Source: a virus. From it: a stretch of 64,000 nucleotides of DNA. Below, piece by piece: positions 4,312-59,468 of the stretch. The notes beneath the pieces were generated by a model. It was given only the letters and a program-made list of their open reading frames with translations. It was not told the origin of the DNA and searched no databases. The stretch spans positions 10,707-74,706 of IMG/VR virus record IMGVR_UViG_3300033463_000089. The stretch is one strand, 5' to 3'. The translations under genes and the position numbers were made by a program. The stretch's first letter is position 1. Every line of letters starts with the position of its first letter.

Positions 4312-4682
4312 TGAGAGACGTAGGACAAGATGTAAGGCGGAACCAAACCGCTTGTGTGAAGCTATCAAAGACCGTGCAGGGACTGATGGCAAACTGGACT
4401 GAGGACAATTTCGTGAACTTCCAAGAGACGATGGACCTCATACGAGAGGGTGCGCCCGTGCAGTGGGTAAAACTCTACATGGAAGCCGTCAAGATGGGTA
4501 TCATCAAGGAAACGAATGTCAATATCAATATCAACCGCCAGCAGGACCACGAAAACCTGCAGGCTCTCGTCCGCACACGAATACCTCAACTCCCCGAGTC
4601 TGGAACCTATACGCCTTACGAAGAGGTCAAGCCACAGGAATACGCTAAACTTACGGCCAACGACAAAACCAAAGAGCAATGA
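4311..4682 (+). CDS. Small structural-module protein (unknown function)
   Basis: 123 aa, translationally coupled on both sides (TGATG and ATGA overlaps). Residues about 33-70 are homologous to a gene remnant at 41839-41950. Confidence 0.45.
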   Translation: MRDVGQDVRRNQTACVKLSKTVQGLMANWTEDNFVNFQETMDLIREGAPVQWVKLYMEAVKMGIIKETNVNININRQQDHENLQALVRTRIPQLPESGTYTPYEEVKPQEYAKLTANDKTKEQ

Positions 4683-10791: not shown

Positions 10792-13700
10792 CTACTGAAT
10801 CTTATCGAGTCCTCTTACGGTGTTCTCCATAATCTGGTCCATACGCATCTGAGCGGCTTCTTTCTGGGATTCGGTCTTCTTTGGATCGTCACAAATCTTC
10901 TTTTGCTTATTGTAAGCCTTCAAAGAGTCGCTCATTATTTCCATTTTGGTAGCCTTAATACTGTCCGCAATAGAAATCTCCTTCATTTTTGCAATCGGGT
11001 CTTTGGCACCAAATTCCTTCAACGAGTTCATCTGTGTCTTGAAGTCTTGCAACTGGTCTTTGTAGTAATACCACTTGTTCCTTGTTCTCGCCTGCTTATT
11101 CTGTTCTGTAGGAGAGTAATGAAACTTTCTTAGGATGGGAGTCTTGTCGCTTGATACGACATCTCTTAAAGTCGAGTTATCTTCTTTTATCATTCTATAG
11201 ACGTGGGCGAGGTTTCCGGCAGTCTTACCAAGTCCTGCAAAGTAACTTTCCACAATGTGCTGAGCAATTGACGGGTCCGTCAGCCATCCATCCAAGCCTT
11301 TCTGGTTGTAATCGGCCTCAGAAATCATTTCCTCGTCAACTCCAAGCTTCTTCAACTTTTCCTCTGAGTAATCGTTGGTTGCTGCATTCCACTTCTTTGC
11401 AAGGCTCATATAAGCCTTGTTTACACTTCTATAAGCGCGTGTATGTCTTGGCTTTGAATCATTACCATAGTTTTCTTTCTCTATCGGTCTGCCATAATAA
11501 TTCTCGTTAAAACCTATCTCCAGAATTGGCCTTGCTGCACTTGGAGTAAAGTTGACAAGCGGGTTTCCTGGATGCTCACCCATGAAGTCAATAGGCAGTA
11601 TCTGCGTCAACTGCGTAGTCACATCCTTCCAAACAGGCTTCTCTGATTTTAGGTCTGGATATTCGGTGTATCCTGCTGCCATATCTCCAATACCATACAT
11701 TGCTCTCAGTTCGATTGGAAGAGCGCAATACAAGAATTGTCCCTTGCCTATATACAGGCAGAGATTATTTCTTCTGATATATTCAGGAAGTTCGGCATAA
11801 GGATTCTTGATACCACCACGCTTGTCTTCGTCCTCCGAATCAATAAGACCTTGATTAATCCAACTCATAATGAAGGCACCAAGAGCAAAGCCGGTGAATA
11901 CCGTGCTTGCCTTGATGGTGTGGTCTCTAAATAGCTTTGCGGCATTGTTCAATCCTTGCACTCCTGCATTATAGAACATGATGTAGTCTTGACCATACTG
12001 TGCGGTTCTTGCAGCTACAAGAGCATTCATCCTCTGCAGGACGCTTCCATCTTTATTTACATCGCGTGTCTTGTATCCGGCACCCTTGCGGTTGAAGTTT
12101 ACGCTTACCTCCTTGGCATCACTGACGGAGCGTGTTATAGAGCGTCCCATCTGTCTTGATGTCATATAGGTGGCGAATCGTGCCATATTCTCGGCTCGCT
12201 CATTCATTACCTCAATGGCGTGTGGCAATAGGTCGAATATATCCTTGCCGCCTCTAACCAGCTTTCTGCCGACATCCGAAGCGGTAAGTTTGCCACTCTT
12301 CAAACTTTGCCAATCTTCCTTGGTTACGCGGTTTCTGATTGTATTCACGTTCTCCTTTACCAGCTTCTTCCACTTGTCGATGTTCTTACTTTCTACCCAA
12401 CCAGTCTCACCGCCATTCTTCATAAATTCACTGAAATAGCGGTCAGTTGGGTTGGACATATTTAATTCGCCTTTCTTGTAACGATTAAATAGATTGGTTT
12501 TCATTAACGGAACCCCTGCGGCTACTCGACCGAAACCTCTACCAAAATAGTTAACCACCCATTGTGCAAAGTATTTTGAACTTTCTTTTATACCAATAGC
12601 AGATGCAGAGAATATCGCATCGCGCTCAGCGTTACTAATTATAAAGTCTGGGTTATATGAAGTGGCTAACTTTGCAATGACATTCTTTATACTCGACATA
12701 TACGCAAAGTTACCTCTGCGCTCTGCCTTCAACTGTCCGTTGATGGCTTGTGCTGCTCTCGGACTACCATTGATGATGAACGAATGCTTTTCACCGTTTA
12801 TCCACACATCAACGATATGCTGTGCTTTATGCTCTCTGTCCGCAGGACGGAAAGGAATGTTGCTATTCTGACGAACACGCTTTGCATCGCCAGCGGCCTG
12901 CTTGGTTTTCATGTCCTGATTATACTGCTCAATTATCTGTGCAATATCATCGGCCTTGGCTCCCTCGGGAATATCGGGGAACTTTTCTACCCATATTTCG
13001 TTGCCTGCTGGATTGTACTGCTTCTCTGCCCACAGATAAGACAACTCGGTTACAAGTCTGTTGTCTGCCTCCACTTCGTTATAGTGGTTACGGACAAATC
13101 TTGCAAACGCCTGCTTCATCTGATTTCTCAAAGCGCGATTGATGGCATTACTACTCATGGCACCCAAGGCTGCAAATACGTCTATATCTGCAAGGCTCTC
13201 GCGTCCCTTGGCATTCATCAGAACGGGGCCTGCCCACTTGCGGTCGCTTCCGTGTTCTTCCAAATAGTCGTAGACCTCTTCGGCGGTCTTTTCGTTATAA
13301 CCCCTCAGAGGAACATACCACTCGAACATCTGACTTACCTTGTCGTGCTTCTCCTTGGAATCAATACCGCCCTCATATTCAGTGTCAAGCCCGAACTGAG
13401 AAACGGCCTTTGTCTTATCCCAAAGATTCTTGACACGCGCATCGCCAAGCATAGATTCTATGCTCATCACTTCGTCTATAGCATCTGAGTCTACTGTCTG
13501 GTCCCAAACGCCGTATAAGTCTGTAAGACCAGAGTAATCTTTATCTCCAACCTTATACTCCGGCAAGTTGTGCTTTATCCAGTTGTCGACCTCTTCAAAG
13601 TACTCACGGAGGTCTATATCTCCCCTTCGCAATTCGTCTCTGAGGTCATTCATGGTAACGAGATAGTCCTGCTCTAATTGGTCGGCCTTTGTTTTGTCTG

Positions 13701-16700
13701 TATTCCTAATGTCGCGCAGGGAGTCTCTGACGAACAACACGCGGTTGCGCTCCAAACCATGTTTCTTAATCATGTAGAGCTGCAGGTTTTTCAACTGCTC
13801 ATCAACGCCCTTACCCATATCAGGAAGGATGGCGGCTACGGCCTTATCCAAAGGCTCCATATAGTCACGGTTGAAGAGGAAGTCAAGCTGCTCTTCCTTG
13901 CTCGACATTTGGTTTTCCAACAACACAAAGTTTTCTGCTGACGGAATATCTTCTATCTTCTTTACACCACTGATTGAGCGCATCAACTCTATAGCGCTTT
14001 GCATAGCGTCGATATGCGCCTCTTTCCATACATATCCTATGCGCTTCAATGAACGCTCATAGTTCCTGCGCTGGTTCTTGACGGATGGGGTGTGTCTGAA
14101 CAAAGTCTTTCCGCTACCGGGGAAGTATGGCACATAACTCTCCGTGTTGTCGGCAGCACCTTCACTATCATAGGCAAACTCGCCATTCTTCACCTTGGCT
14201 TCGTATTTCTCCTGTCCGAGTTTGTATAGCAAAGCTTCGCGCTCAATCTGATTCATGACATTGCCCTTTTCAAGATTGTGCTTACTCAGCCACACCATAT
14301 ACTTAACGTCTGATATACTCGGACTCATGGTGAAGCCTACACTTCTCAAAGCATCGGTCATAACGTTCTTCACCTTCTGCCACATCGACAAATCGCCGTA
14401 GCCCTTTTCTGCTGCATCAGCAAGGAACTCGTCAATAGTGCGGTATGTATCGAAACCGTTCTTGGCAAGGTTCTCTTCCATGTACTTGCTTAACTCTTCG
14501 TTCTTCAAGTCAAAGAGCAAAGAGCGCATATAACTCTTATACGCCTTCTCTCCAAGCAATTCACGGAAACCATAATGTCCTATAGTCTCGTGGGCAATAG
14601 TCTTCTCTGCATCGTAGGTATCTTTGACGTGAGGAAGATACAGGTAAATCTTCTTCTTGCCATCCTCACCAATCTCTACCCAACCGGGAACTTCTTTGCC
14701 AGCCGCGATAGCGTCCTTGACATCCTTATTCTTAATCTGGTCGGGAGAGGTAATAGCCTCAAAGTCAACATTCAGCTTCTTGGCAAGCTTTCGTCCTGCC
14801 TCTTCCTTTCGACGGAAATCAGCGTCAATAGTATTCTCGCTGCCACGGCTACGCATACGGGTTTCTGTTTCTTCGACATCTTCGAGCATGAAGCCGTCTT
14901 TTCCGTAAACATCACCCTTGTATTGTTCGTTATACTTGGCGTTGGCGTCAATAACGACAACGGAGCCATCTTTCTGCTCTACAATATTCCCATGATGGGT
15001 ATCTTTGACATAATACTTTTCGTTTCCAAACTCCAACCCGTCGCCGTAAATGTCGGACATACCCCTTTCTTCAAAGTATTGTTCAACCTTCTTGTCGATG
15101 CCATTCTGGAAATACTCTTCCATACTATACTGCTTGCCTTGGATAAAAGGCTGCTCGACAACAACATTAAACCTACCTTCCTTGTCACGGGAGAATCCGA
15201 CAACCTTATAAGCTGATTCAGGGAAAAGCTTATTAAAGACTTCGATATTTCTTAAAGCCTTTAATAAACCGCCATCGTTACGCTGGTATGGGTCGTTGAA
15301 TTTTGTGATAGTCTTTCCGTCGGGCGAGAGATAAACACGGCTCTCACCACCCTTGGTAAGCATCTTTCCGTCGTAGGAAGATTTGGCAAACTCGTCCTCT
15401 TCCTTCCAATAGCCGGATGCCTTAGCCCAGTCTTCTACGGATTTTTCTATCTGCGCTCTTACAGGTTTGTCTGCATCATGCTCCGCGCGAATTGAAGCTG
15501 CTGCTGGAACTCCTCCCTTGTCTGCGGATATGATTTCTGCACCGATATGCGCCGCTGTAAGGCCTGTGCGCCCGCTTTCCGTATCTTCTCGTCCAAGGCG
15601 TGCTCGCCCGGAAACGACTCTTGATGCAAGTTCGTTGACTGTCTCATTGTACTGCTCTCCTTCTTTTTGGGGCAAAGATAAGAATAAATCCTCAGACTTC
15701 TCGTCTTTGCGCTCGTTATTTAACTTTTGTTCGGTTTTCTCTCGCTTGCGGAATCTTGTTGTCGGCTTATCCTCCAACTGCATGGTCTCGGCATTGAACT
15801 CCTTGCCACTCTCGCGGTCAAAATCATACTCTACCTTCTGGTCGGGGTGTTCCTCGTTCCAATCGTCGATAACCTTTCTCGCCTCACGATCGCTCATGAT
15901 ACGATTAGCCTTGAAAGCACCGGCAACATACCAACCGATACGGTCGGCCTGCGAAGCTTCCTTGTTGGCATTGGTTGCCTTCATGTAGAAACCATCCTCG
16001 GGGATATGTGTCGGTATGTCCTTGTCGGGATTCATGTTGGCCTCGTTCTGATAGTTCTTGTCGGCAGGCACTTCGCCCTCAACCCAAACAAATTTGTCAT
16101 CACGAAGGTTTCTGTCCCTACCCTTGCCTATCTGACGCATGGAAGGTAATGAGCCGGCGTGCCAACCTGGGCGCATAGCGAACTCGCCAACTTGACCACT
16201 TCCATTGATACCAATGTTCATATACTTGCGGTTCTCGCCCTCATATCTGCGCTGACCTCTCTCGGTGGCTGATATTCTCACAAAACGCTGCCCGTTGGCG
16301 GCTGCTTCGTTAATCATGTCAACAGACGGGTTCTTTCCAACCTTAACGCCTTTCTCTTTTGCATACTCTTCCAGCGTCTTATAAGTTCCATTGGCATAAT
16401 CGACAATGAAAGTACCCTCCGGCATCTTCTTCAAGATGCTCATGTCGGGACTATCTGCATCGTACCACTTACCCAACTCCGTGGGATTTGCTGAATCAAT
16501 AAACAGAGGATAAAGCTTGCCGTCTTCCCCTAATCTCATCAGCTTATAGACCTTCTGTGTCTTCTTTGGCTCTTCTTTCTCTCTCAGACGGAAACGGGTG
16601 GTAGTTCCCGGCTCCTGCGTCGTACCATTCAGACTGTCAGCAAACTTTCTTGCATCTTCCTCGGTCTTGAAGTGGAAAGCTTTCTTGAATCGGTTATAGT

Positions 16701-19700
16701 AACCGTCATACGCCTTTGCTCTACGCTCTACGGCGCGGTAGTCGTTATCGCTCAATCTTGCGCCATTGTAGCTAACAAGGTGCATATCATCGCCAGTACG
16801 GGTGTTCTTGTCAAGCTTATACTGATAGTCGCTCTTAGGCTGTGCCCCTCTTTGCGCAATATCTCTTATCTGCTCAACGACGGTTGATGTCCGAGCATTT
16901 ACGGGCTCATTCAAATCTAACTTCTCGCCAGTCTGCCAATCAATACCTGCATTTCTGAGGATATTCTTTGAGCGCTCCGACAGTCTGAAATCATTGCTGT
17001 GTGCGGCAACAATATTCATTCTGATACCATCCTCAGTTAGACTTGAATTGTTCGGATTCTCTCTGACTGCTGTTTCGGCAATAGTATTAATGCGCTCTCT
17101 CTTCTCTTGACGAATACGCTCGGTCTCGGCTTCTCGCTCTTGTATCCTGCGCCTGGTCTCCTCGTCACGCTCGCGTACCATCCTATCCATTTGGTCGGCG
17201 GTAACGCCCATCACGTTCTCCAGAGTCTTAATAGCTTGCTGGCAATAATCCTTGATAGCATCAATGGCAGGAATCTTGTCTTTTCCTCTGCCATACGTCT
17301 TATTATTGTATTTTCCGTATTCAAGCTCTTCAGGATTCTCCATCGTCTGTTTGAGGTTCTTATACCAGATAAGAGCGCTCTGCATACTCGGATTGTTGAG
17401 GTCGAGGCGTATTTCTGCCACATCATAGCGAGACCTACTGCGTACAACCAACAAATCGCCATAGATATTGAAATCGCTTGTAAACGGGTTGCTCTCCAGA
17501 GCTTTTTTAGTTTTCAGCGCCTTCTTTGTATTAATAGCCACTTGGTCAATGGTTCGCTCTGGCATACGGACAGTTCTCAACTGCTCGAACATATCCTCCA
17601 CGGTCTTGGCGTTGCTAATATCAAACGTAACCTTTTGCGGAGCTTTCCTCCTCATTTCCTCTCTCGATACTTTATCAATAACAAGTATGCGAGTCCGAAC
17701 GCTTGTTCCTGCTCTTCCAAATGCGACATCAGGAAGTTTTACCTCGCCAATTACTACGGCAGAACCATTTACTCCGTCATAGCCGGTTGAGGCAAGCCAA
17801 GCGTCAACACGTTTTTCTGTTGCTGGGCCGTCTGGGATGATAGCAATCAGTCGGCCACCCTCATTAAGATGCTTAAATGCTTTGCCAACGTGTTCCATGG
17901 CAGTCTTGCCACCAACGCCATACGGCGGGTTCATCAGAATAGCATCGTGCTTATTCTGCAAAGGATAGTCCTCAAATGTCTTTTCTTCAAACTTTCTGCC
18001 GGGGCCGCCAGCTCGCATCTGCAAGCGAGAGAACAAAGCAGCACTTGGCTCTACGGCAGTCAAGGGGTTCGTCTCAGGCACATATCTCGCAATGGCTCCA
18101 TGACCGGCACTCGGCTCCAAAACGCTTTCTTCGTCAAGAAGCTGTGCCCATTCCACCATCTTCCAACCTATAGGCTCAGGTGTCGGGAAGTAGTCAACAC
18201 CCTCGCGGTTATCACGGCCTCTCTTCATCTTCTGATTGCCGTAGTAATCACTAATAGCGACATCGAAGCCGTCTTTCACACCTCGGCTGGCGACCTGTCC
18301 GTCCATATCTTTACCACCAAATCCCTGACGCTCGTAGTCTATCTCGCCACTGTTCTCCAATACGGCATTGGCAATACTCTGGCGCAGGTTTCTTGCCTTG
18401 CTTCCAAGGGCAAGATTCTCGGTGGTTCCTAAAGCACTATTAAACTTCTGTGCAAACAGACTGGTTTCAAGATCAAGGCCAAGGAGAGGATACTCAAAGA
18501 CGGCGTTACTCTTCTGACCTATTCTATATATACGACCTTCTATCTGAATAAATGCAATAGGACTCTGAGGTAAAGCAAGGTTGATTTCCACTCTCTGATG
18601 CTCACCGGTTTGGTCGTGCAAAGAGATACCTTCCTTACCGCTGGCTTCTTGAATGACGATAATATCTTTACCGCCATTATCTTTCATAAAGTCCTCTACG
18701 CTTGTATGCTTAGTCTTTTTGTTTTCAGCACCAGAGAAGAATCCTATGTTCTTCTCACCGAACACCTTTGCTATCTGGTCTCTTGGGAGGGTATAGTCCA
18801 GCGTTTGCTCCCACTGCAACATATCCTTAAAGTCTGTCTCGAAGGCATGAATAGCAGAAAGAAGCTCCGATTTCTTATGCTGGTCTTGCATAGCCTCGGC
18901 CTCTATTCTTGCCATTGTCAATGCTCTTTCAAACGGTGGCTCCAAATCTCCGCTGGTTCTTCTGCGATGGAACACAACCACTTTCTGCCCTCTCTTCAAA
19001 TGCTCTTTGATGCGGTCAATGACAAGCGAGGTTTTCATGGCCTCAAACAGAGCCGTTGAATAGTTGTAATCAAACGCCTTGCGGAATGTCTCTGCAAGAG
19101 GCTGATACTTCTTGTTGCGATACACCTCGCTCATGGCCTGGTTAAATCGGCCTGCATGGTCAAGAGTTAATACGGGGAAGTCTCTTGAATAGTCCCATTC
19201 GGAGTCAATCATGCGACCACTCATGGTCTGTAGATTGTTCTGCAAGTAGTCAGAGAAATCTATCTCCTGCCTACCAAGTGCTTCTTGGTTACTGATGTGA
19301 CTCTCCAAACGTCCGTATCTCCAACGATAACCGCCTGGGAATGTCTGCTCCAAGAAAGCTTCCTCGGGTGAGCGATGATTGTATGTACCGATAGTTTCTT
19401 TGTCTTCCTCGGGATAGCTGAAAATATAACCCTCTGCGTACTTCAAATTTTCGCGGGTATTGAACGGTGTTGCAGAAAGGAACACGGTTTTTGTTACCTT
19501 AGAATCTATCTCTGCCTGTGCTCGTTTACTCTCACGAATAGGCTGCTGCTCAGCAGGAATCTCTGCCAGACGCTGCTGCACCTCCAACTGACGTTTGTTG
19601 AGGCGGTCTTTCAGGGCCTCATCTTCTTTTGAAAGATAATCCTTGTCGTCAAGTTCTTCTATCTTGGCGGCATTTTCCTCAAACTCTTTTCTAAGATTGC

Positions 19701-22700
19701 GCTGCTCTACCCACAACGGCAGGTAGTACGTCTGACGATCAATAGACTTCTCTACATCTTTGTTGGTGAGCATCTGGTGAAACTTGAACATCTCACCTTC
19801 TGCAGCCTCCTTACCTTCCGTAATCTTATGACTCTCGTCATAGATAACAAGGTCAAAGCAATCTTCCAACAAAGCAAGGTTCTGACGAGCGTTCGCATAG
19901 GTTGTAACAACAACACCCTTGCCTTTGGCTTTTGTGGCCGAAGTTCCGGCTGCTTTTGCGGCAGTGTCAAGATCTTCGATGTTTAGGCCAAGATTCAAAC
20001 CATCCTTTTTCCAGTCTGACACCTTCTCCTGACTCGGCGTAAGGATAAGTACTCTACCCTTTCCCTGCTTTACAAAACGCTTGGCAATTCCAAGGCCGGT
20101 ATATGTCTTACCCGTACCCGTGCCATTGGTAAACATATATCCCTTTCCGTTGCCGTGCTCGCGGTCTTGGTGAGTCTCGTCAAAGAACTGCGTCTCAGAC
20201 CTAAGCACGTCTTCGTGCTGCTCTGGCAAAAGATACGGTAATGTCTCGCGGATATTATCAACATCTCCGGTCTTGACTTCGATACTTTCGGCAGCCTTCT
20301 GCTTCTCAAACTTAGTGCCCAAGTCCTCGCGGACAACCTCTCTCAGCTTCTCTTCACCGATAAAAGATGCCCACTCGCGGATGGTGCGTGTAACTCCGTC
20401 TATATTATATTCGCAATTCCATACTTCATTAAGGTATTCATCTATTTCTGCATCGCTCCATTTCATATCCTCCTGGAGCCAGTCGTGGAAGTCTTCAAGC
20501 ATCTGCTTGCGCCAACCATCAAACTCACGAATACCTTTGACAAGATACTGATAACCGAGGTTGGCACTCTCAGTGGTAATATCCATGAGAATACCAATCT
20601 GCTCGTTATTCATGCCGACAAGGGAGATAGTTGATTCTCCGTTGCGGCCTGCTTTCTTGAAACGTTCTCTTAGCTCTGCGAGTCGCTGCTTGCTGGCTGC
20701 GATGGCGGCATCACTTCCTGCTGCAAGCTTTTGAGTATTTCCGTCGCTTCGTCCACTTCCTCTGGACTTACCCAGTTGATTTCCCTCGACACCAGGTCGC
20801 ACGCCTCCTCCGGCCAGTACACCTCCGGAAGAAAGCCCAGCCAATTCGGATGACGATTCAGAAACTCCGCTATCGCCTCCCTCTCCAGATATACCGGGTA
20901 AGCGTCCCTCACTATTCTCCACACGTTGCTGTGTGGGTTGCTCTTGTCTTTCTCCAATGCCTGCACCTTCGGTTTCAACCACGCTGCTATCTGGTCCTCC
21001 AGCTCGTCCAGGTCGTCGCCCTGCAGAATCCTCTCCGCTATCCAACTGTGTTCCACGTTCGGGTAGCTGGCCATTTCCCTCAATTCTTTCTCTGGTAGTT
21101 CTAACATCGTTATAAGTGTTTAAGTATGCTGCTTTTTGTAATACGCCTTGGTTCCCGTTGAGGTAAGCCTTGGCGAGTGTCTTTTGCACATCAGAGACGG
21201 ATGAACCATCTATCTCGTCAATGGTAAGCGGCGTGTCTGCAAACGCATCGGCCTGCTCCTTGTCTGCCATCTGCTGAGGTGTCTCGTTGTGGGTAACGCC
21301 GATGGCCTCGTCCTGCTCCTTTCTGAACTCCGTTGCCGTTTCATCTATCTTTTTCATTGGGTCTACCTCGGCTTTCTCTGAGAACTTTTTCATCGCCTCT
21401 CTTGCAGCCTCGGCATTTTCTTTGGGAATAGTCCAGCCTTTTCCGGACTCCCATTCGCCACCCATTTTTTTGAACTCGTTGTAAAGGTCTGTATAATCGT
21501 CAGAAGTGACCTTACCATCTTGGATAACATTCTCATCCGTGATAGTTATCGAGCCATTCTTGTTCTCTTTTACAGAGAAGATGTTTGGTTTTTCTTCGCC
21601 GGTATCGAAACTCGTCTGCTTACGCTCGTTATCCAAAGCACCGCGAACACGGCTGTCATGCTCTTCTTGCGATTTCAGCCTTTCAAGCCTCTGCTCTGCA
21701 TCTGCTACGGCATCGCGCTCTGCCTTGGTTCGCTTTTCAACTCCCTCTGCAGAAGTGTCGAGACCCATTTCTTCGGAAGAGAAGATTTGGTCTTCACTCT
21801 CAAAGGCCTTGTCGTTGGCAAACATATCGGTGGCCCGCTCACTCTCTTTGTTCTGAGCCTTTGCAAGCGCACTCTTTGCTTGTCTTACCTCTTCCTCGGC
21901 AGCTTTGACTTCCTCGGCAAGCTTCGCTTCAACGTCGGAAACAATCTTTTCTTCCTTCTCGTTGCGTGGCTTTAGGTATTCGTCTCGCTCTGAGGATTCG
22001 GATTCTCGGCTTGATTCAGCACGTCCTTCACCTTGGCCATCATTGCCTCTTTCTGCGCTTTCTTGGCCAGGTTCTTTTCCTTCACCATCTGCGGGAACTC
22101 GCGCATGCTCCATATCTTGCGCTTCGTCCCGTCTTTCTCCGTTACTTCTATCATTGATATAATCCTTTATTGTTTGTACTCTCTTTCTCAGCTCTTCGGG
22201 AGTTAGGTCGCCGGAGTAAACGGTAATCTTGCCGGTTTCTTCATCGAAGAACACTCCCTCTTCAAGAGCATATCGCTTTACAGCTTCTATTTCTTCTTCT
22301 CCGATAAAGGCTCCGTCGTTGGCTTTTTCAGCAAGTTCTCTCCAAGTGTCTGCCGATACTCTGTCTGTATCAACAATCTTAATCTCTGGAGTACCTTCTT
22401 CTTTCATCAAAGCCTCTGCTTCTTTGAGTAGCTTGGTGATGGGCGCGTCGGGAATATCTTCGTCTGTAGACTGAGCAAACGGCATTTCTTCTTCAATCTT
22501 TGCCACCTCTTCTGCTGACAGTTCTATTCTCTCGTTGCGCTCTGCCTCTTCCTTTAGTCTGGCTTGCTCGGCTTCCCATGCCTTCTGTGCTTTTTCGACG
22601 CGGTTGCGAAGAACATATTCGGTAATATCTTTTCCGCTTTCTGCTGACAAGAAGAGGTCGATGATTGCGTCGCCGATTTGCCGCTCGTCGAATCGCTTTC

Positions 22701-25700
22701 TATCTTCACCGTCTAAACCGTGAATAGTGTTCTCGTCGCTACGCCATACCTTATCAACAAACTCGTCGAAGCCCATGCCGGTGGTATCATCCTTACCTTT
22801 GAAAAGATGTGCAAAGGCGTGGCCCTCGCTACCTCTTCTTCCACCAAACTCGGTATTGATACCTAACGCAGTCTTGAAGCCTCTGATGACGCCTCCAGCT
22901 CCATTTGGCTTGTCTTCCCAACTGAATTGTCTGCCAGTTCCAATGTTCAATGCAACAAGTTCTGTGGCATCGCCAGGAACATCTATATCATCATTGAACG
23001 AAGGGCCGTACTTCTTCTTGTATCGTTCTACAAGCTGCTGCAGGCGTGACTTCAAAGAAGGCTTCTTTTCGGCCTCCGGCTGCTCACTTGCAACCTTTGG
23101 TTGCAAAGGTACAACATTTTGAGGTTCGTTGTTCTCTACAGGCGCAACATTTAAGTTAGTTTCAGGCTTGTTTGCTTTCTCTAACTCTTTCTTGGCAGAA
23201 GTCCAATAGTCCACCTTCTGCTGTGCCTCAGCTTTCTGTGCGTCTATATTGTCCTGCTCTTTGGCTCTCTTAATGGGGTCGCTGCTCTTCGGTGTCAGCT
23301 TCTCTGCGGCCTTAACATCTTTCTCTGAGGCCTTAATCTTAGCGTCGACGGCATCAATCACGCGCTTCTTGTCGCCGTGATTAATCTCGTCCAATGCGGA
23401 TAATGTATCTTCTACGGGTGCTTGCTCCCACTGGTACTGAGGGTCGCCCTCTTCGTTAAGAACGTCCGCACCTTGTTCGTCTTTCAAGGTGGGTATCTTG
23501 GAAATAGCAGTCTCTTGTTCTGGCACTACAGCACCTTCTTCTTGCCCTGGAGCCGGTTGCAAAACCTCATTTGTATTCTGTTCGCTTTCGCCCTGCTTTT
23601 CTTCTTCGGGGTTGACAAGGCCAGCTTCTACAGCTGTGTTGGAAGATTCCACCTGCAACTGCTCACGCACTCTGTTTGCGTACTCTTCTTTTGCCTCACG
23701 GCCTGCAATTGACATGGTGGCATCTGGCTTGGTAGGTAAAAATCGTCCATCCTTTGCTCTGAGGATAATCTGACCGCTTGACTTATCCGGGTCTACACTT
23801 ACTCCGTCTCGCGTACCTATATTACCATTCACAAGGATAAAGTTCTCTCCGTCTTTTGTAATGGTAATAATGTTTGCCTGGTCTGCTTCCTCGTCAATAG
23901 TTCCATGGAAAGACTTCTCGGTTACGTCTTGGGAAACCTGCTCGTCGATGTTCGCGCCGGTCTGTTCAATGTAACCGTCTTTCTTGGCTTTTGCATTAGC
24001 ATAGTCAGCCAGCTTTTCAAGGAAGTTGTCAACCTCCGGCCCGCTAAAGTTGTCGCGGATATACATATATATATCGTCCAGACGTGCGGATTCGCCAAGG
24101 GCTTCAAGTGCTTGTTGAATTTCCTCACTACGGGAGGCTGAGAGATAAGCATCGCGTGCGGCGTTATACTCTTGTGCCACCTGTGCAGCAGTCTCGGGAT
24201 TCATAACACCACTACCGCCTGCAAGTGTTTCTCCGTCAATTCTTGATTGCTCGGTGTGCTTTTCACCTACGGGATAGGCGGCATCGTGAAGACGCTTTGC
24301 AAGCTCATTCATAAGGTCTTGTTCATCGTCTACACGTTCAATGGGTTTCTTGTGCATGATGTCGAGAACTTCCTCTACCGTCATATTGCACTCGTTAGCA
24401 AACTCAGCCACTATCTCGTTACCCCAATTTGCTTTCTCTCTTGCTCGGTCAAGAACAATATCGTAGCTCTTACCACCCGGCTCTACGTCTTGCGGACGAA
24501 GGCCCGGATTTACCTGCAGAAGTTCTTGTGCCGACTGACGAATCATTTCTTCGGTCGGGTCTGATACCTTAATCTTACTCAGTACACCATAGTCAGAAAT
24601 CATATCATCGTTAGCGCGACGATCTTCAATCTGCTGGCGAATCTGCATGAGTTCGTTGACATCAGAATACTTGTGTACCTCTATCAATTCTCCCGTAGCA
24701 GAACGCTCGCTAATGGTCTTGTCTGTGCCGTTAATATTGATGTCCTTGGTACGAGGGCGGCTTGACTCACAGGCATTTTGCACCTGTGCAGACACCTTCA
24801 TGCGAGTAGTCCAAGGTATGTTTTGTCTATCAGACAGAATCTTGCCTACATTGTTAATATCCGATGCTATCTCTGCGAAATCCATACCGGCGAAAGCACG
24901 CTGTATAGATTCCCTATCCATATCATTGAGTTGTATAGGCGCGTTCTTCGACTGCTTAACGGAGAATATATCTTTCAGTTCGCGTCCTACGCCTTTAAGT
25001 CCGTGGCCGGACGAGAACTTAGAACCTATCTGCATATAGAAAGCGTCTGCTGCACTATCTACCCAATTAAAATTCTCTGGGTCAGATATATAGTCCAGGC
25101 CGGTGAAAATCTGGTTCTCCACCAAGAATGAACCACCATAGAAAGCCGCCTTTTTACCGATATTCTTCTGTCCTACCGTTCCTATCCTGCCTCCTAATTC
25201 ATGTGCAGCTACGCCAAATGCACCAGTGGCAAAACCGAACTTAGCACCTTCCCATGCTCCTTCAAGTGCAGCGTGACCGATTGACGAAAGTGTGCCATCG
25301 CCCGTTGACATTTCCTGCAAGGCACTTGAACCTCCCATGAATGTTGACATTGAGCCAGCACCTCTTAACATGGCATTGGTATAGATACCACCATATTTAA
25401 CTACCTTGCTAACGTTTGCGGCAAGGAACGGGCTTCCCGTTGCAACTATATGGCCAAGTTCCTTCTGTCCCAAACTTGCTATGGCGGAACCTATGGCTTT
25501 AGTACCAAACTCGCCTACCGTGCCGGTTACCATAAGAACAGGTGCATCTGGTGCGAACATAGCAACACTACCAGCCATTCTTGCACCAATACCGGCGTTA
25601 TAATGCTTTCCTTTTCCTTCTTCCGTCTTAAATAGTTCCTCATTGCGCATCCTGCGCTCCATCTTTGACATGGTAGACATTCCTGCAAGTGTTCCTATTA

Positions 25701-26853
25701 CGGAGTTGCTCATCTTGCGAGTAAGGTAGTCTGCCACGTCCTTGACAGAATACTTCTCTTCCATGTGCTTCTGGAATCCCTGCGCAATACCTTCGCTTAC
25801 CTGCGGTATAAACTCCTGCCATACGAAGTCTTCTACAGGCATACCAAGACGTGCGGCACTTGCTTCTATCAAGTCTCTGTTTTGTTCTACAAGTCCGTTG
25901 GCAAAGTCCGTTGCCTCGCCAGTGCTATTGCCGAAGAAATCGGGTCTTGAATCAAGCTTTGCACCATAACGCTTGTTTAGTGCATCCAAAAGGCTTTCTG
26001 GGCTTGTGATACTAGAAGTCTTCGCCAATTCCGGCGACATAACATTAGTGTCGAGGTTCTTTCCTTCAAGGCCCTTTTTCAATATGTCACGACCTTGCTT
26101 TTCAAGTTCATCTTGAAGTCCAAGGATTGCACCATTTACTGCAGGGTTGATGGCCTGTTTCTGCAACTGCTTGCGGATAACCTCTCTTTCTTGTTGCTGA
26201 TACTGCGCCACACGCTGCTCGTCAGTGGTCTGCCCCATCAGCATTTGCCCGCTTTCGTCTCTTACGGCGGTAGGTGCTGTCACGGGTGTATTGACGATGT
26301 TTGCAAGCGGTTTTCCTGTAGCTTCGTAGTACTCGCGCTCTTGCTGCATACGCTGAACGGCAGTATCAAGACCGCTTTCCTTGGCGGCTTTCTTGTCGCC
26401 CTTGATGGCCTTATCTAACTGCTGAACGGTGTTTTTCTTTTGCTCAACGGCTTTACCTGTCTGCGGGTTAATGGGCTGGCCTTTTGCAGTACCCCACGAC
26501 GAAGCACCTTTGCCCATAGCCATTTGGTTGGCCTGCTGCAAATCCAACTCACCGAAACCTTCCGGAATTGGCGAAGGCTTCTGTTGGGTAGCTTGTGGTT
26601 TCTGCTGAGGCTTCGCCGGTTGCTGTGGTTTGGTTGCGAAATCGGTGCTTATGCTACCGAAGAAATCGTCCTCGGAGCCTATCTCATTCTCGTCAAAGAT
26701 ACCGCTTTTGATTAGATTTTGATGGAATTGTCTTGATGATTTCTCATCTTTAATGGCATTCTTAAAGTCGTTAAGACTGCCGATCTGACTTTCATCAACC
26801 TTTCCAGAACCAATAAGGTTGCGATACAACTGCTCTCTCTTATCTTGTGCCAT
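10792..26853 (-). CDS. Giant polyvalent virion protein (5,353 aa): Gly-rich hydrophobic N-region, SF2/SNF2-like helicase, N6-adenine DNA methyltransferase, protein-kinase-like domain, HExxGH module, long unassigned C-terminus
   Basis: Uninterrupted 16,062-nt ORF. Walker A GTGTGKT (20104-20124), DESH (19828-19839), QIEGRIYRIGQ (about 18514-18546), LEPSAGHG (about 18094-18120), NPPY (17920-17931), GGESRVY...DTHHGN...VIDA (14947-15352), HETIGH (14575-14592). Confidence 0.9.
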   Translation of the reverse strand: MAQDKREQLYRNLIGSGKVDESQIGSLNDFKNAIKDEKSSRQFHQNLIKSGIFDENEIGSEDDFFGSISTDFATKPQQPAKPQQKPQATQQKPSPIPEGFGELDLQQANQMAMGKGASSWGTAKGQPINPQTGKAVEQKKNTVQQLDKAIKGDKKAAKESGLDTAVQRMQQEREYYEATGKPLANIVNTPVTAPTAVRDESGQMLMGQTTDEQRVAQYQQQEREVIRKQLQKQAINPAVNGAILGLQDELEKQGRDILKKGLEGKNLDTNVMSPELAKTSSITSPESLLDALNKRYGAKLDSRPDFFGNSTGEATDFANGLVEQNRDLIEASAARLGMPVEDFVWQEFIPQVSEGIAQGFQKHMEEKYSVKDVADYLTRKMSNSVIGTLAGMSTMSKMERRMRNEELFKTEEGKGKHYNAGIGARMAGSVAMFAPDAPVLMVTGTVGEFGTKAIGSAIASLGQKELGHIVATGSPFLAANVSKVVKYGGIYTNAMLRGAGSMSTFMGGSSALQEMSTGDGTLSSIGHAALEGAWEGAKFGFATGAFGVAAHELGGRIGTVGQKNIGKKAAFYGGSFLVENQIFTGLDYISDPENFNWVDSAADAFYMQIGSKFSSGHGLKGVGRELKDIFSVKQSKNAPIQLNDMDRESIQRAFAGMDFAEIASDINNVGKILSDRQNIPWTTRMKVSAQVQNACESSRPRTKDININGTDKTISERSATGELIEVHKYSDVNELMQIRQQIEDRRANDDMISDYGVLSKIKVSDPTEEMIRQSAQELLQVNPGLRPQDVEPGGKSYDIVLDRAREKANWGNEIVAEFANECNMTVEEVLDIMHKKPIERVDDEQDLMNELAKRLHDAAYPVGEKHTEQSRIDGETLAGGSGVMNPETAAQVAQEYNAARDAYLSASRSEEIQQALEALGESARLDDIYMYIRDNFSGPEVDNFLEKLADYANAKAKKDGYIEQTGANIDEQVSQDVTEKSFHGTIDEEADQANIITITKDGENFILVNGNIGTRDGVSVDPDKSSGQIILRAKDGRFLPTKPDATMSIAGREAKEEYANRVREQLQVESSNTAVEAGLVNPEEEKQGESEQNTNEVLQPAPGQEEGAVVPEQETAISKIPTLKDEQGADVLNEEGDPQYQWEQAPVEDTLSALDEINHGDKKRVIDAVDAKIKASEKDVKAAEKLTPKSSDPIKRAKEQDNIDAQKAEAQQKVDYWTSAKKELEKANKPETNLNVAPVENNEPQNVVPLQPKVASEQPEAEKKPSLKSRLQQLVERYKKKYGPSFNDDIDVPGDATELVALNIGTGRQFSWEDKPNGAGGVIRGFKTALGINTEFGGRRGSEGHAFAHLFKGKDDTTGMGFDEFVDKVWRSDENTIHGLDGEDRKRFDERQIGDAIIDLFLSAESGKDITEYVLRNRVEKAQKAWEAEQARLKEEAERNERIELSAEEVAKIEEEMPFAQSTDEDIPDAPITKLLKEAEALMKEEGTPEIKIVDTDRVSADTWRELAEKANDGAFIGEEEIEAVKRYALEEGVFFDEETGKITVYSGDLTPEELRKRVQTIKDYINDRSNGERRDEAQDMEHARVPADGEGKEPGQESAERGNDGQGEGRAESSRESESSERDEYLKPRNEKEEKIVSDVEAKLAEEVKAAEEEVRQAKSALAKAQNKESERATDMFANDKAFESEDQIFSSEEMGLDTSAEGVEKRTKAERDAVADAEQRLERLKSQEEHDSRVRGALDNERKQTSFDTGEEKPNIFSVKENKNGSITITDENVIQDGKVTSDDYTDLYNEFKKMGGEWESGKGWTIPKENAEAAREAMKKFSEKAEVDPMKKIDETATEFRKEQDEAIGVTHNETPQQMADKEQADAFADTPLTIDEIDGSSVSDVQKTLAKAYLNGNQGVLQKAAYLNTYNDVRTTRERIEGNGQLPERGTQLDSGEDSAGRRPGRAGGPDSSVVETEGAGIGERQEQPTQQRVENSEGRLPGISGEGGDSGVSESSSELAGLSSGGVLAGGGVRPGVEGNQLGKSRGSGRSDGNTQKLAAGSDAAIAASKQRLAELRERFKKAGRNGESTISLVGMNNEQIGILMDITTESANLGYQYLVKGIREFDGWRKQMLEDFHDWLQEDMKWSDAEIDEYLNEVWNCEYNIDGVTRTIREWASFIGEEKLREVVREDLGTKFEKQKAAESIEVKTGDVDNIRETLPYLLPEQHEDVLRSETQFFDETHQDREHGNGKGYMFTNGTGTGKTYTGLGIAKRFVKQGKGRVLILTPSQEKVSDWKKDGLNLGLNIEDLDTAAKAAGTSATKAKGKGVVVTTYANARQNLALLEDCFDLVIYDESHKITEGKEAAEGEMFKFHQMLTNKDVEKSIDRQTYYLPLWVEQRNLRKEFEENAAKIEELDDKDYLSKEDEALKDRLNKRQLEVQQRLAEIPAEQQPIRESKRAQAEIDSKVTKTVFLSATPFNTRENLKYAEGYIFSYPEEDKETIGTYNHRSPEEAFLEQTFPGGYRWRYGRLESHISNQEALGRQEIDFSDYLQNNLQTMSGRMIDSEWDYSRDFPVLTLDHAGRFNQAMSEVYRNKKYQPLAETFRKAFDYNYSTALFEAMKTSLVIDRIKEHLKRGQKVVVFHRRRTSGDLEPPFERALTMARIEAEAMQDQHKKSELLSAIHAFETDFKDMLQWEQTLDYTLPRDQIAKVFGEKNIGFFSGAENKKTKHTSVEDFMKDNGGKDIIVIQEASGKEGISLHDQTGEHQRVEINLALPQSPIAFIQIEGRIYRIGQKSNAVFEYPLLGLDLETSLFAQKFNSALGTTENLALGSKARNLRQSIANAVLENSGEIDYERQGFGGKDMDGQVASRGVKDGFDVAISDYYGNQKMKRGRDNREGVDYFPTPEPIGWKMVEWAQLLDEESVLEPSAGHGAIARYVPETNPLTAVEPSAALFSRLQMRAGGPGRKFEEKTFEDYPLQNKHDAILMNPPYGVGGKTAMEHVGKAFKHLNEGGRLIAIIPDGPATEKRVDAWLASTGYDGVNGSAVVIGEVKLPDVAFGRAGTSVRTRILVIDKVSREEMRRKAPQKVTFDISNAKTVEDMFEQLRTVRMPERTIDQVAINTKKALKTKKALESNPFTSDFNIYGDLLVVRSRSRYDVAEIRLDLNNPSMQSALIWYKNLKQTMENPEELEYGKYNNKTYGRGKDKIPAIDAIKDYCQQAIKTLENVMGVTADQMDRMVRERDEETRRRIQEREAETERIRQEKRERINTIAETAVRENPNNSSLTEDGIRMNIVAAHSNDFRLSERSKNILRNAGIDWQTGEKLDLNEPVNARTSTVVEQIRDIAQRGAQPKSDYQYKLDKNTRTGDDMHLVSYNGARLSDNDYRAVERRAKAYDGYYNRFKKAFHFKTEEDARKFADSLNGTTQEPGTTTRFRLREKEEPKKTQKVYKLMRLGEDGKLYPLFIDSANPTELGKWYDADSPDMSILKKMPEGTFIVDYANGTYKTLEEYAKEKGVKVGKNPSVDMINEAAANGQRFVRISATERGQRRYEGENRKYMNIGINGSGQVGEFAMRPGWHAGSLPSMRQIGKGRDRNLRDDKFVWVEGEVPADKNYQNEANMNPDKDIPTHIPEDGFYMKATNANKEASQADRIGWYVAGAFKANRIMSDREARKVIDDWNEEHPDQKVEYDFDRESGKEFNAETMQLEDKPTTRFRKREKTEQKLNNERKDEKSEDLFLSLPQKEGEQYNETVNELASRVVSGRARLGREDTESGRTGLTAAHIGAEIISADKGGVPAAASIRAEHDADKPVRAQIEKSVEDWAKASGYWKEEDEFAKSSYDGKMLTKGGESRVYLSPDGKTITKFNDPYQRNDGGLLKALRNIEVFNKLFPESAYKVVGFSRDKEGRFNVVVEQPFIQGKQYSMEEYFQNGIDKKVEQYFEERGMSDIYGDGLEFGNEKYYVKDTHHGNIVEQKDGSVVVIDANAKYNEQYKGDVYGKDGFMLEDVEETETRMRSRGSENTIDADFRRKEEAGRKLAKKLNVDFEAITSPDQIKNKDVKDAIAAGKEVPGWVEIGEDGKKKIYLYLPHVKDTYDAEKTIAHETIGHYGFRELLGEKAYKSYMRSLLFDLKNEELSKYMEENLAKNGFDTYRTIDEFLADAAEKGYGDLSMWQKVKNVMTDALRSVGFTMSPSISDVKYMVWLSKHNLEKGNVMNQIEREALLYKLGQEKYEAKVKNGEFAYDSEGAADNTESYVPYFPGSGKTLFRHTPSVKNQRRNYERSLKRIGYVWKEAHIDAMQSAIELMRSISGVKKIEDIPSAENFVLLENQMSSKEEQLDFLFNRDYMEPLDKAVAAILPDMGKGVDEQLKNLQLYMIKKHGLERNRVLFVRDSLRDIRNTDKTKADQLEQDYLVTMNDLRDELRRGDIDLREYFEEVDNWIKHNLPEYKVGDKDYSGLTDLYGVWDQTVDSDAIDEVMSIESMLGDARVKNLWDKTKAVSQFGLDTEYEGGIDSKEKHDKVSQMFEWYVPLRGYNEKTAEEVYDYLEEHGSDRKWAGPVLMNAKGRESLADIDVFAALGAMSSNAINRALRNQMKQAFARFVRNHYNEVEADNRLVTELSYLWAEKQYNPAGNEIWVEKFPDIPEGAKADDIAQIIEQYNQDMKTKQAAGDAKRVRQNSNIPFRPADREHKAQHIVDVWINGEKHSFIINGSPRAAQAINGQLKAERRGNFAYMSSIKNVIAKLATSYNPDFIISNAERDAIFSASAIGIKESSKYFAQWVVNYFGRGFGRVAAGVPLMKTNLFNRYKKGELNMSNPTDRYFSEFMKNGGETGWVESKNIDKWKKLVKENVNTIRNRVTKEDWQSLKSGKLTASDVGRKLVRGGKDIFDLLPHAIEVMNERAENMARFATYMTSRQMGRSITRSVSDAKEVSVNFNRKGAGYKTRDVNKDGSVLQRMNALVAARTAQYGQDYIMFYNAGVQGLNNAAKLFRDHTIKASTVFTGFALGAFIMSWINQGLIDSEDEDKRGGIKNPYAELPEYIRRNNLCLYIGKGQFLYCALPIELRAMYGIGDMAAGYTEYPDLKSEKPVWKDVTTQLTQILPIDFMGEHPGNPLVNFTPSAARPILEIGFNENYYGRPIEKENYGNDSKPRHTRAYRSVNKAYMSLAKKWNAATNDYSEEKLKKLGVDEEMISEADYNQKGLDGWLTDPSIAQHIVESYFAGLGKTAGNLAHVYRMIKEDNSTLRDVVSSDKTPILRKFHYSPTEQNKQARTRNKWYYYKDQLQDFKTQMNSLKEFGAKDPIAKMKEISIADSIKATKMEIMSDSLKAYNKQKKICDDPKKTESQKEAAQMRMDQIMENTVRGLDKIQ

Positions 26854-26866: not shown

Positions 26867-27865
26867 TTATTTCTTGGGAAGAAGTGAACCGCCTTGTTTG
26901 TTTCCACTTGGAAGGAGGCTTTTCTTTGGTGTTGTGGTCTTTGTTTTGCTACTGCTTTGAGTACCCGTAGAACCTCTCCTACTCTTTTGAGAAGTCCATG
27001 TGACAGTTCCATCCGGATTCTCTTTCTTTGTCCTTGTTTCAGTAACGTCATAATCGGAAAGACCACCCCTTCGGCCGCCACCACCACCGCTTCTACCGCC
27101 TCCTGTGCGGTTGTTGCGTGCGATAACACTCTCTTCTTTCTGCGGCAAATACTTGTTGACAATCTCTTTTCGCTCGTTCTCAGTAATCTGCCCCTTTGCT
27201 TTCAATTCGTTCAAATAGGTCAGTACGTTCTGTGTCTGGATACGTGCCTCATTGAGATTTGCCCTTGCGTCTGATTCGTTCTTCTTCAATTCATAATCAC
27301 GTGCATCCTTCGCCTGGTTGTATCTGAACTGCTGCTCCCACTTCTCCATCGCGGCGTCCTGCTGTGCTTTCTGCTGCTGGTAGTTGTAGTAAATCTGATT
27401 CGCCCTGTCTCTGAGTGCCTTGCCTTGCTGATAGCGGGCATACTCTTCATTGACGGGGTTATTGAACTGCTGGGCCGGTGCGCCCTTGGTCGTGTTGTAG
27501 ATATTACCGATATGTCTGAGCGCGTCGCCAATAGCCAAGATACGCTGATTCATCACACTGGCCTTCCTCAGTTTCTCTTCATCTTCTGGAGAGGTATAGA
27601 GGGAGTTAAGGTAGTCCAATGCACCCTGCGGATTGTTCGAGCCGCCCGTGTATTGCTTCGGTTGAGAAGAAACCGCAGGGGTTTTCACTACGGGTGTAGG
27701 CTGAATAGGCTGTGATACTGCGCCCGTCTCAGAGTTGGCAGCTTGCTTACCTGCTGCAAACTGCTCAGGCGTCTCACCCTGCACTTGGCCGGGTGTGTTC
27801 TGCTGAACGGTGTCTGCATTGGGGTAATACTTCTGCTTCTGTTGAGCAAATAAATTATATTCCAT
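26867..27865 (-). CDS. Gln/Asn-rich coiled-coil protein with Gly/Arg tract (unknown function)
   Basis: 332 aa. Contains GGGRSGGGGGRRGG and a basic C-terminus. Its stop is 13 nt before the giant ORF start, so the two are probably co-transcribed. Confidence 0.6.
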   Translation of the reverse strand: MEYNLFAQQKQKYYPNADTVQQNTPGQVQGETPEQFAAGKQAANSETGAVSQPIQPTPVVKTPAVSSQPKQYTGGSNNPQGALDYLNSLYTSPEDEEKLRKASVMNQRILAIGDALRHIGNIYNTTKGAPAQQFNNPVNEEYARYQQGKALRDRANQIYYNYQQQKAQQDAAMEKWEQQFRYNQAKDARDYELKKNESDARANLNEARIQTQNVLTYLNELKAKGQITENERKEIVNKYLPQKEESVIARNNRTGGGRSGGGGGRRGGLSDYDVTETRTKKENPDGTVTWTSQKSRRGSTGTQSSSKTKTTTPKKSLLPSGNKQGGSLLPKK

Positions 27866-28041: not shown

Positions 28042-28560
28042 ATGAAGCAAGATTATAGTCTATCAAAACAGATGCAGGACGACCTCATCAAAGCCTATAA
28101 CGAGGTCGCAAAGCATTGCTGGTATCAGAAGGATGCCTACAGGAGAACGGTCGAGCACCCGGCTCCGAGGTATTATGTGTCGCCGCATCATGCAGCAGAA
28201 ATCCTCTCTCCCATGCTACGGGGTGATTTCAGTCGTGTGGACAAGATGCACCCGAACAAACGGAGATTGTACTATTCTCTCTACAAAGAGGTGGCTAAGA
28301 TGTCAGAAGAGAGGGAGTTCGTAGGCAAGTCGCTTACTTACGTCGCTCAGTTCGCCGTCTTACGCCCTGCCCCCGAGTTCTTTTTATCAGTCAGTCAGTT
28401 CCAGGACATGAGGCTATGGATAAAGAGGGGACTGATACGCGACGATGGCAGTTACACTCCCCTCCCTCATCTTGTTCGCTCACATGAGAGGCTGACGAAG
28501 AAACGCGCGAGGGCGAAAGCCAGAAGAGAAGCGTTGGAGAAAAAGGACTTAGAAGCTTGA
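28042..28560 (+). CDS. Hypothetical protein (172 aa)
   Basis: Start set at ATG 28042, because the longer ORF-track start at 27931 runs through the promoter box and a hydrophobic junk-like leader. Basic C-terminus. The 3' end overlaps the TerL 3' end by 12 nt (convergent). Confidence 0.5.
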   Translation: MKQDYSLSKQMQDDLIKAYNEVAKHCWYQKDAYRRTVEHPAPRYYVSPHHAAEILSPMLRGDFSRVDKMHPNKRRLYYSLYKEVAKMSEEREFVGKSLTYVAQFAVLRPAPEFFLSVSQFQDMRLWIKRGLIRDDGSYTPLPHLVRSHERLTKKRARAKARREALEKKDLEA

Positions 28561-58147: not shown

Positions 58148-58149
58148 CT

Positions 58150-59466: not shown

Positions 59467-59468
59467 TT

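Follow-up and report, generated by a model that had tools for sequence, protein, structure and literature searches.

The window analysed here, a 64,000-nucleotide (nt) stretch of the IMG/VR virus record IMGVR_UViG_3300033463_000089 (positions 10,707 to 74,706), carries on its minus strand an open reading frame (ORF) of 16 kb (10792..26853), a genuine single gene belonging to a temperate phage of the Bacteroidales type. As judged by its domains, the product, 5,353 amino acids (aa) long, is a phage-type polyvalent protein of the LPD38 family, in which several unrelated domains (helicase, methylase, kinase, an HExxH module, LPD38 and a domain here called domain X) are found in a single chain. Comparison with its relatives shows that the protein is modular: conserved N-terminal and C-terminal modules, the latter consisting of the HExxH module and a core of about 1,000 aa ending in LPD38, flank a variable middle. 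The predicted cassettes of this middle part are a linked pair of superfamily 2 (SF2) helicase and N6-adenine methylase, followed by domain X and then by Kinase-PolyVal, and alignments show that such cassettes are exchanged between close relatives. We consider it probable that this LPD38-family protein is packed in the capsid and injected with the DNA, its ends serving packaging and ejection and its cassettes acting in the infected cell. The parts of the gene referred to below are:

10792..26853, minus strand: whole gene for the 5,353-aa polyvalent protein; one ORF, with a collinear 5,330-aa orthologue (62% identity)
26644..26832, minus strand: pair of N-terminal repeats of ~31 aa, aa 8-70; read from the sequence, weak match to Pfam DUF6103 (E 0.034)
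23554..26556, minus strand: conserved N-terminal module, aa ~100-1100, including a Gly-rich stretch (aa 380-620); common to relatives, without Pfam, PHROG or NCBIfam match
22174..23127, minus strand: orphan conserved island, aa 1243-1560; single 100-aa blocks are as much as 93% identical to the orthologue, with 39% identity to relative P0001
20254..21276, minus strand: conserved pre-helicase region, aa 1860-2200; kept together with helicase and methylase in relatives P0002, P0004, P0006 and P0085
18484..20190, minus strand: predicted SF2 helicase, aa 2222-2790, with motifs I, II and VI; ResIII, AAA_34 and Helicase_C, phrog_10691 and phrog_5143
17638..18198, minus strand: predicted N6-adenine methyltransferase, aa 2886-3072; motifs and PHROG DNA methyltransferase families (8e-31, 2e-19)
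16582..16605, minus strand: junction motif 1, TTTRFRLR, aa 3417-3424; kept upstream of domain X in nearly all relatives
15766..16581, minus strand: domain X, aa 3425-3696, beta-rich; from identity among relatives, a profile search and an AlphaFold model
15742..15765, minus strand: junction motif 2, PTTRFRKR, aa 3697-3704; start of the block swapped in the orthologue
14869..15741, minus strand: swappable cassette, aa 3705-3995, with Kinase-PolyVal at aa 3803-3973; Pfam 1e-24 and catalytic residues, LPD3 in the orthologue
14845..14868, minus strand: junction motif 3, TETRMRSR, aa 3996-4003; end of the block swapped in the orthologue
14254..14814, minus strand: HExxH module, aa 4014-4200 (H4088, E4089, H4092), putative metallopeptidase; motif, conservation in relatives and model topology
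11074..14070, minus strand: C-terminal core, aa 4262-5260, with a hydrophobic helix (aa 4982-5004) and LPD38 (aa 5017-5226); LPD38 3e-28, phrog_14770 and tblastn

Polyvalent proteins were defined by Iyer, Burroughs, Anand, de Souza and Aravind in 2017 (PMC5512222), who reported LPD38 only in polyvalent proteins of the phage type encoded near virion genes, and the truncated kinase type mainly in prophages of Bacteroidetes and Verrucomicrobia. The first-pass annotation of the window had assigned the protein to this class, and Pfam bears this out: LPD38 scored 99.8 bits (E 3e-28) and Kinase-PolyVal (PF18762) 87.7 bits (E 1e-24), both far above their cut-off of 27, in a gene that lies beside the terminase of a temperate phage. 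The same annotation had treated aa 4100-5353 as a motif-free region possibly harbouring an effector. This assignment has to be reversed, as the region contains LPD38, is conserved more widely than any other part of the protein and is probably its core; phrog_14770 spans aa 4067-5333. Directly before LPD38, aa 4982-5004 (11842-11910, minus strand) form the most hydrophobic segment of the protein (FTGFALGAFIMSWINQGLI), which could act as a helix that inserts into membranes.

No part other than the C-terminal core is common across phyla. In tblastn searches it matched the cultured Bacteroides phage BS-TP4 (E 2e-91, 32.6% identity) and, at about 24% identity over 61-85% of the 781-aa query, Burkholderia phage Bcep22 (E 6e-16, labelled 'DarB-like antirestriction'), Ralstonia phage GP4 (E 9e-16) and the Stx phage phi24B (E 4e-13), while a longer query (aa 3852-5353) matched gp55 of the Bacteroides phage BKO1-TP3 at E 4e-116 and 28% identity. 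An alignment scan with the C-terminal part over one genome per GTDB species gave 341 encoded relatives; among the 80 loci listed of these, most belong to Bacteroidales (Segatella, Prevotella, Bacteroides, Phocaeicola, Muribaculaceae, Rikenellaceae), the closest at 38-39% identity. At the DNA level, megablast of the giant gene against 50,697 phage records gave no match, and searches of PDB sequences with both halves of the protein and with a profile of the C-terminal module gave none either.

Wherever the question has been tested, members of the LPD38 family are packaged, and they seem to matter for infection; homology makes this the best reading for the window protein as well. In Burkholderia phage JC1, gp69, which has 4,515 aa, takes up 22% of the genome and combines a lytic transglycosylase, a methylase and a helicase with LPD3 and LPD38, was detected with 51 unique peptides in CsCl-purified virions, and it is a close homologue of Bcep22 gp75 with 79% identity (PMC9144972), its tie to the window protein running via Bcep22 only. 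In phi24B, gp47 (2,811 aa, with LPD38) is abundant in virions and has been proposed to be an ejection protein (bioRxiv 10.64898/2026.04.10.717836). In phage PTXU04, knock-down of a protein consisting of LPD38 only impaired infection. We infer packaging and injection because such homologues were found in virions, and from the model of Iyer et al. (2017).

In the proposed course of events, the giant protein would be made late, packed inside the capsid and would exit it together with the DNA at infection, with packaging and ejection depending on the conserved end modules. Once inside a new host cell, the enzymatic cassettes would come into action: as suggested by the analogous P1 DarB, the methylase and helicase would shield the incoming DNA from restriction, host proteins would be modified by the kinase, and the HExxH module or the head protease might cut at the junction motifs, thereby freeing the cassettes. 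P1 DarB is packaged and protects DNA from type I restriction, and its packaging depends on DarA and Hdf.

Several points weigh against this proposal. Packaging, ejection, processing and every enzymatic activity of the window protein are ones that we infer, and the helicase, methylase and kinase are identified by motifs and profile scores. The match to the homologues that were shown in virions comprises only aa ~4490-5160, at about 24% identity. Searches with Pfam detected no MuF, DarA-N or portal-binding domain in the giant protein, and in the window no homologue of the BKO1-TP3 portal gene (gp54) was recognised. For the HExxH module no Pfam family, neither MPTase-PolyVal nor a peptidase, was found at E-values up to 5, and none was found for the module in relatives P0030 and P0043. 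The model of the C-terminal module had a predicted local distance difference test (pLDDT) of 59.7 and a predicted template modelling score of 0.39, and its Foldseek matches were noise, thus providing no usable fold.

It is possible, if on balance doubtful, that the protein is mainly a structural ejection protein, whose conserved ends form or extend an envelope channel for DNA delivery and whose cassettes are secondary passengers; this differs from the packaged-effector proposal in emphasis and overlaps with it. Such a role has been proposed by the phi24B authors, who see gp47 as a conduit, and it would suit the requirement of PTXU04 for its LPD38-only protein for efficient infection, the spread of the C-terminal core alone across phyla and the presence of two hydrophobic elements, the Gly-rich stretch (aa 380-620) and the helix before LPD38 (aa 4982-5004). 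The hydrophobic peaks are weak, however, no fold or sequence match to known ejection proteins was found, and the cassettes are clearly constrained, with 70-89% identity to the orthologue.

A protein that is not packaged or injected and acts late in the producing cell, for example by methylating progeny DNA before packaging, is improbable. Many phage methylases do act in the producing cell, and the lack of a recognised capsid-targeting domain (MuF, DarA-N) would be expected of such a protein. Against this stand the virion-associated homologues of the C-terminal core, the position of the gene beside packaging genes (and beside the portal gene in related phages), and the restriction of LPD38 to phage polyvalent proteins encoded near virion genes (Iyer et al., PMC5512222).

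The single 16,062-nt minus-strand ORF announced by the first-pass annotation was recovered in the ORF listing of the window as 5,353 uninterrupted codons with an ATG start; its translation contains one stop, the terminal one, the window has no N or other ambiguous bases, and all motifs quoted in that annotation were located in the translation. The spacing of 13 nt to the preceding gene, a 332-aa ORF upstream on the same strand (26867..27865), was also as described. Based on the base composition of the window, a run of 5,353 stop-free codons would arise by chance with a probability of about 10^-132. The orthologue of 5,330 aa, found on IMG/VR contig IMGVR_UViG_3300028886_003639 (loci L003, L004), is collinear with the window protein at 62% identity overall, differing in its first ~70 aa, which are unlike those of the window protein. 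A chance ORF, a fusion or a frameshift artefact can be ruled out because the frame of the orthologue is intact across 38% aa divergence. Nor is the size exceptional, as had been implied: two genes of cultured Bacteroides phages in GenBank encode 5,553 aa (BKO1-TP3 gp55) and 5,391 aa (BS-TP4 gp3), metagenomic relatives reach 7,703 aa, and 42 of the 55 related ORFs examined in GTDB genomes leave the upstream end of the fetched sequence (at most 10 kb) at more than 4,000 aa. With an orthologue of the same length and order, GenBank genes of this size and so many related ORFs running off the fetched sequence, an assembly or sequencing artefact joining several shorter genes, for which nothing but the unusual length speaks, has next to no probability.

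The module map was obtained by BLAST against 90 relatives from two protein searches. Most 100-aa blocks of the helicase, the methylase, domain X and the beginning of the C-terminal module share 70-89% identity with the orthologue, but the value falls to 14-29% over aa 3701-4000, where the orthologue presents LPD3 (its aa 3767-4001; Pfam 9.5e-9) in place of the kinase. The kinase-like module had been predicted earlier, and besides the Pfam score it is supported by the presence of the catalytic residues: GGESRVY at aa 3835 (Gly-rich loop), DTHHGN at aa 3951 (D3951-x4-N3956) and VIDA at aa 3967 (D3969). Another relative (P0025; 3,478 aa) is composed of the N-terminal module, the kinase and the C-terminal module without helicase and methylase, an architecture that fits conserved ends with variable cargo between them.

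The helicase-methylase block spans aa 1860-3240 in the BLAST map, pre-helicase region included, and for this block full-length relatives with about 36% identity were found in Klebsiella phage vB_KpnP_ZX1 (annotated as 'PLxRFG protein') and Ruegeria phage 45A6. The proposed SF2 helicase has GTGTGKT at aa 2244 (motif I, GxGKT), DESH at aa 2339 (motif II, DExH), QIEGRIYRIGQ at aa 2770 (motif VI, QxxGRxxRxGQ) and a ResIII match (aa 2222-2349; Pfam E 1e-13). Pfam AAA_34 (aa 2226-2345) scored 28.1 bits against a cut-off of 27, and Helicase_C (aa 2700-2779) was borderline, with 20.5-24.1 bits against 23.5 and a score above the cut-off in one tile (24.1). NCBIfam tiles gave weak matches of helicase type and nothing else. 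The proposed N6-adenine methyltransferase carries LEPSAGHG at aa 2912, motif I for the binding of S-adenosylmethionine, and the catalytic NPPY at aa 2975. Pfam MTS (aa 2910-3006) remained just under its cut-off (20-22 bits against 23), so the call is based on these motifs and on the matches to PHROG families, up to 8e-31, and not on Pfam.

The borders of the last cassettes carry a short basic-aromatic motif, [RK][FY][SR]x[RK], which in relatives takes the form [RK][FY]S[LIV][RK]. Shuffled sequences would be expected to give the pattern T-[RK]-[FYM]-[RS]-x-[RK] 0.1 times, and the window protein has it three times: at aa 3419 (TTRFRLR) at the start of domain X, at aa 3699 (TTRFRKR) on the border of domain X and the kinase cassette, and at aa 3998 (ETRMRSR) on the border of the kinase cassette and the HExxH module. 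The second and third sites exactly enclose the block that is swapped in the orthologue. Among 164 related proteins with a length of 2,000 aa or more, the pattern [RKTQVIN][FY]S[LIVM][RKS] was found 285 times against 43 expected, an excess of about 7-fold in proteins that are akin, so that these are not independent counts. In the relatives, neighbouring motifs lie a median of 233 aa apart, and in three of these proteins (P0024, P0053, P0075) every occurrence falls between Pfam domains. Motif density per 1,000 aa reaches 17 over the 30 residues that precede domain X and 9 over the 30 that follow, compared to 0.6 inside the domain and 0.5 elsewhere, the flanking density thus being 15-30 times that elsewhere. 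A repeat for recombination at the DNA level was considered and ruled out, as the three sites differ in synonymous codons; for the same reason the signal is placed at the protein level.

In the most attractive reading of these patterns, the junction motif may be a processing or cleavage site; a conserved linker element without cleavage would be the alternative. Iyer et al. (PMC5512222) propose that domains are released by embedded peptidases and describe no site. We tentatively suggest, as a speculation that is rather unlikely to hold in full, that the giants are true polyproteins which would be cut at [DEGN]-x-[RK]-[FY]-[SR]-[LIV]-[RK] by the HExxH module or by a head protease, each cassette being freed after injection as an effector in its own right. 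The junctions would also delimit the exchanged units, and domain X, bracketed in this way in about 180 proteins, would represent an effector not yet described, whose fold is absent from the PDB.

Domain X (about 270 aa) is 51-68% identical to the window protein in most of the roughly 67 related giants carrying it, and 41-44% in the most divergent ones; the C-terminal cores of the carriers are 22-40% identical to that of the window protein. Many of its polar residues are invariant, among them H3565, D3585 (within the conserved triad R3584-D-D), D3598 and E3657, a conservation pattern which may point to an enzyme. An exhaustive profile search found the domain in at least 1,291 clusters (at the 50% identity level), mostly inside giants, which reach 7,703 aa, with others of 6,845, 6,024 and 6,007 aa. 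Domain X has no Pfam match, and a partial match to phrog_30118 (function unknown) was the only one among PHROGs. The AlphaFold model, built with 15 sequences, is beta-rich with a mean pLDDT of 75; Foldseek found no neighbour for it in the PDB (best E 0.29, TM-score at most 0.13) and only uncharacterised viral proteins in BFVD, and a profile search of PDB sequences gave nothing.

The HExxH module begins the conserved C-terminal part. The HETIGH motif at aa 4088 had been noted before and is indeed present and conserved in relatives, while a match to MPTase-PolyVal, the zincin-like peptidase embedded in polyvalent proteins, or to any other Pfam family is missing. The module is conserved in about 25 relatives and occurs twice in P0030, with the consensus TIxHExIGHxGxR and, some 50 residues downstream, a D..E that hardly varies. 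The model places two strands ahead of the HExxH helix (pLDDT 66-87), and it is from the motif and this strand-strand-helix topology that the module is described as a putative metallopeptidase. Homology to Pfam MuF_C was considered and ruled out, as MuF_C sits elsewhere in P0030 and P0043.

At the other end of the protein, the repeat pair and the Gly-rich hydrophobic segments of the first-pass annotation were both located. The repeats occupy aa 8-38 and 42-72 (QLYRNLIGSGKVDESQIGSLNDF and QFHQNLIKSGIFDENEIGSEDDF), and the Gly-rich stretch (aa ~380-620) has a Gly content of 16-18%. In BLAST comparisons the N-terminal module is always N-terminal, both in five relatives (P0001, P0002, P0025, P0085, P0120) and in the IMG/VR orthologue; an IMG/VR scan made with the module found no relatives. 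Over aa 1-2170 nothing was found in Pfam at E-values up to 5, in PHROGs at E-values up to 0.05 or in NCBIfam, and tblastn with aa 1-2200 against the 50,697 phage records gave no match. For aa 1-2200, a word-indexed search of 5.8 billion proteins, which considers exact-word candidates only so that distant relatives may escape, returned two relatives. A dedicated search of the same kind with the orphan island (aa 1243-1560) returned none, with the same limit; its carriers are P0001 and the orthologue only, the latter with one 100-aa block 93% identical.

The assignment to a temperate phage is based on the predicted terminase, integrase and RecT genes of the window. The tyrosine integrase (39798..40940) comprises Arm-DNA-bind_5, of Bacteroidota type, and SAM_5 domains, and a rhomboid-like protein, an SbcC-like protein and an Ant-like regulator are encoded in addition to RecT. 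Two neighbours on the strand of the giant gene are relevant here:

28549..30726, minus strand: large terminase subunit; phrog_2 (3e-17), 35% identity to homologues in BKO1-TP3 and BS-TP4
26867..27865, minus strand: upstream neighbour of 332 aa with many Q, G and R residues; found at the equivalent place in the IMG/VR contig (65% identity), in BKO1-TP3 (gp56) and in locus L057

The terminase, the rhomboid-like gene and two small genes, one of them the 332-aa neighbour, have homologues in BKO1-TP3 and BS-TP4, and the 332-aa protein could be a helper for the giant protein. The GenBank label of the homologues of the window terminase, BKO1-TP3 gp51 (L001 21151-23265) and BS-TP4 gp7 (L002 20340-22436), is 'tail spike protein'; given the 35% identity, they are probably large terminase genes. 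The late operon proposed by the first-pass annotation was confirmed in part: the terminase is indeed located upstream on the same strand, at 1.7 kb, but a homologue of BKO1-TP3 gp49 (28063..28389) intervenes on the plus strand between the terminase and the 332-aa ORF, which is why only the 332-aa ORF and the giant ORF form a contiguous unit. The gene order around 28063-28389 (plus strand) and 28549-31153 (minus strand) is rearranged with respect to the Bacteroides phages. Elsewhere in the window, three adjacent plus-strand ORFs (2286-2882, 2894-3670 and 3676-4311) all match phrog_19255 (function unknown) and look like tandem paralogues. The region 58001-62000 has a G+C content of 0.36-0.39, compared to 0.41-0.52 in the rest of the window and 0.51 at 62-64 kb, and could represent foreign cargo or a prophage end.

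The kinase-to-LPD3 swap and the architecture of P0025 provide a clear map of chassis and cargo, and the junction motif offers concrete candidate sites for whether and where polyvalent proteins are processed. Domain X, with its at least 1,291 clusters, and the first 2,170 residues are the unannotated parts that deserve attention. Comparable giants are frequent in prophages of genome collections dominated by Bacteroidales, and such phages are common in the human gut, so that the injected proteins bear on the conflict between phage and host in Bacteroidales.

Like the class described by Iyer et al., whose members often exceed 2,000 aa, the window protein combines many unrelated enzymatic domains in a very large chain encoded beside packaging genes; it shares Kinase-PolyVal and LPD38 with that class, and its combination of helicase, N6-adenine methylase and HExxH motif is the phage-side core of that paper. 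None of the families defined there matches domain X or the first 40% or so of the protein (aa 1-2170), and the junction motif is undescribed in that work. Bcep22 gp75 and JC1 gp69 are similar in that they take up about 22-25% of a phage genome of about 60 kb and contain a methylase, a helicase and a C-terminal LPD38. However, JC1 gp69 has an N-terminal lytic transglycosylase and LPD3, whereas the window protein has a kinase, domain X and another N-terminal module; the host phyla differ, and identity (Bcep22) is about 24% and limited to the C-terminal core. With phi24B gp47 (LPD5, LPD1, LPD38, MuF-C) the C-terminal core is homologous (E 4e-13), although that protein reaches only half the size and lacks a helicase, a methylase and a kinase.

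P1 DarB (2,255 aa), to which the first-pass annotation had compared the protein, also joins an N6-adenine methylase and an SF2 helicase, and its gene lies beside the portal gene. The shared pair of enzyme types stands, but the likeness goes no further: BLASTP aligned aa 2886-3072 with DarB 88-284 (methylase; 24% identity, E 6e-4) and aa 2728-2785 with DarB 1470-1523 (C-terminal helicase motif; E 0.011), the methylase precedes the helicase in DarB and follows it in the window protein, and DarB lacks LPD38, the kinase and domain X. Orthology was ruled out by this marginal pairwise similarity and the inverted domain order, and P1-type phages were absent among the listed tblastn matches. By these comparisons, DarB, which has both enzyme types, is an analogue in function and not a member of the family.

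In size class and host order the window protein resembles BKO1-TP3 gp55 and BS-TP4 gp3 (PMC12694917; PQ571269, PQ571277), with 28-30% identity over the C-terminal ~1,280 aa and homologous upstream neighbours (gp56, gp57), terminase and rhomboid-like gene. Their cargo differs (ddrB-ParB, InPase and a SNF2-type helicase), their N-terminal module is not detectably shared with the window protein, and the portal gene follows the giant gene there, as it also adjoins it in P1, but not here. The class is thus already known, with giants that are common in gut phages and sometimes larger, and the window protein is a rather divergent addition to it.

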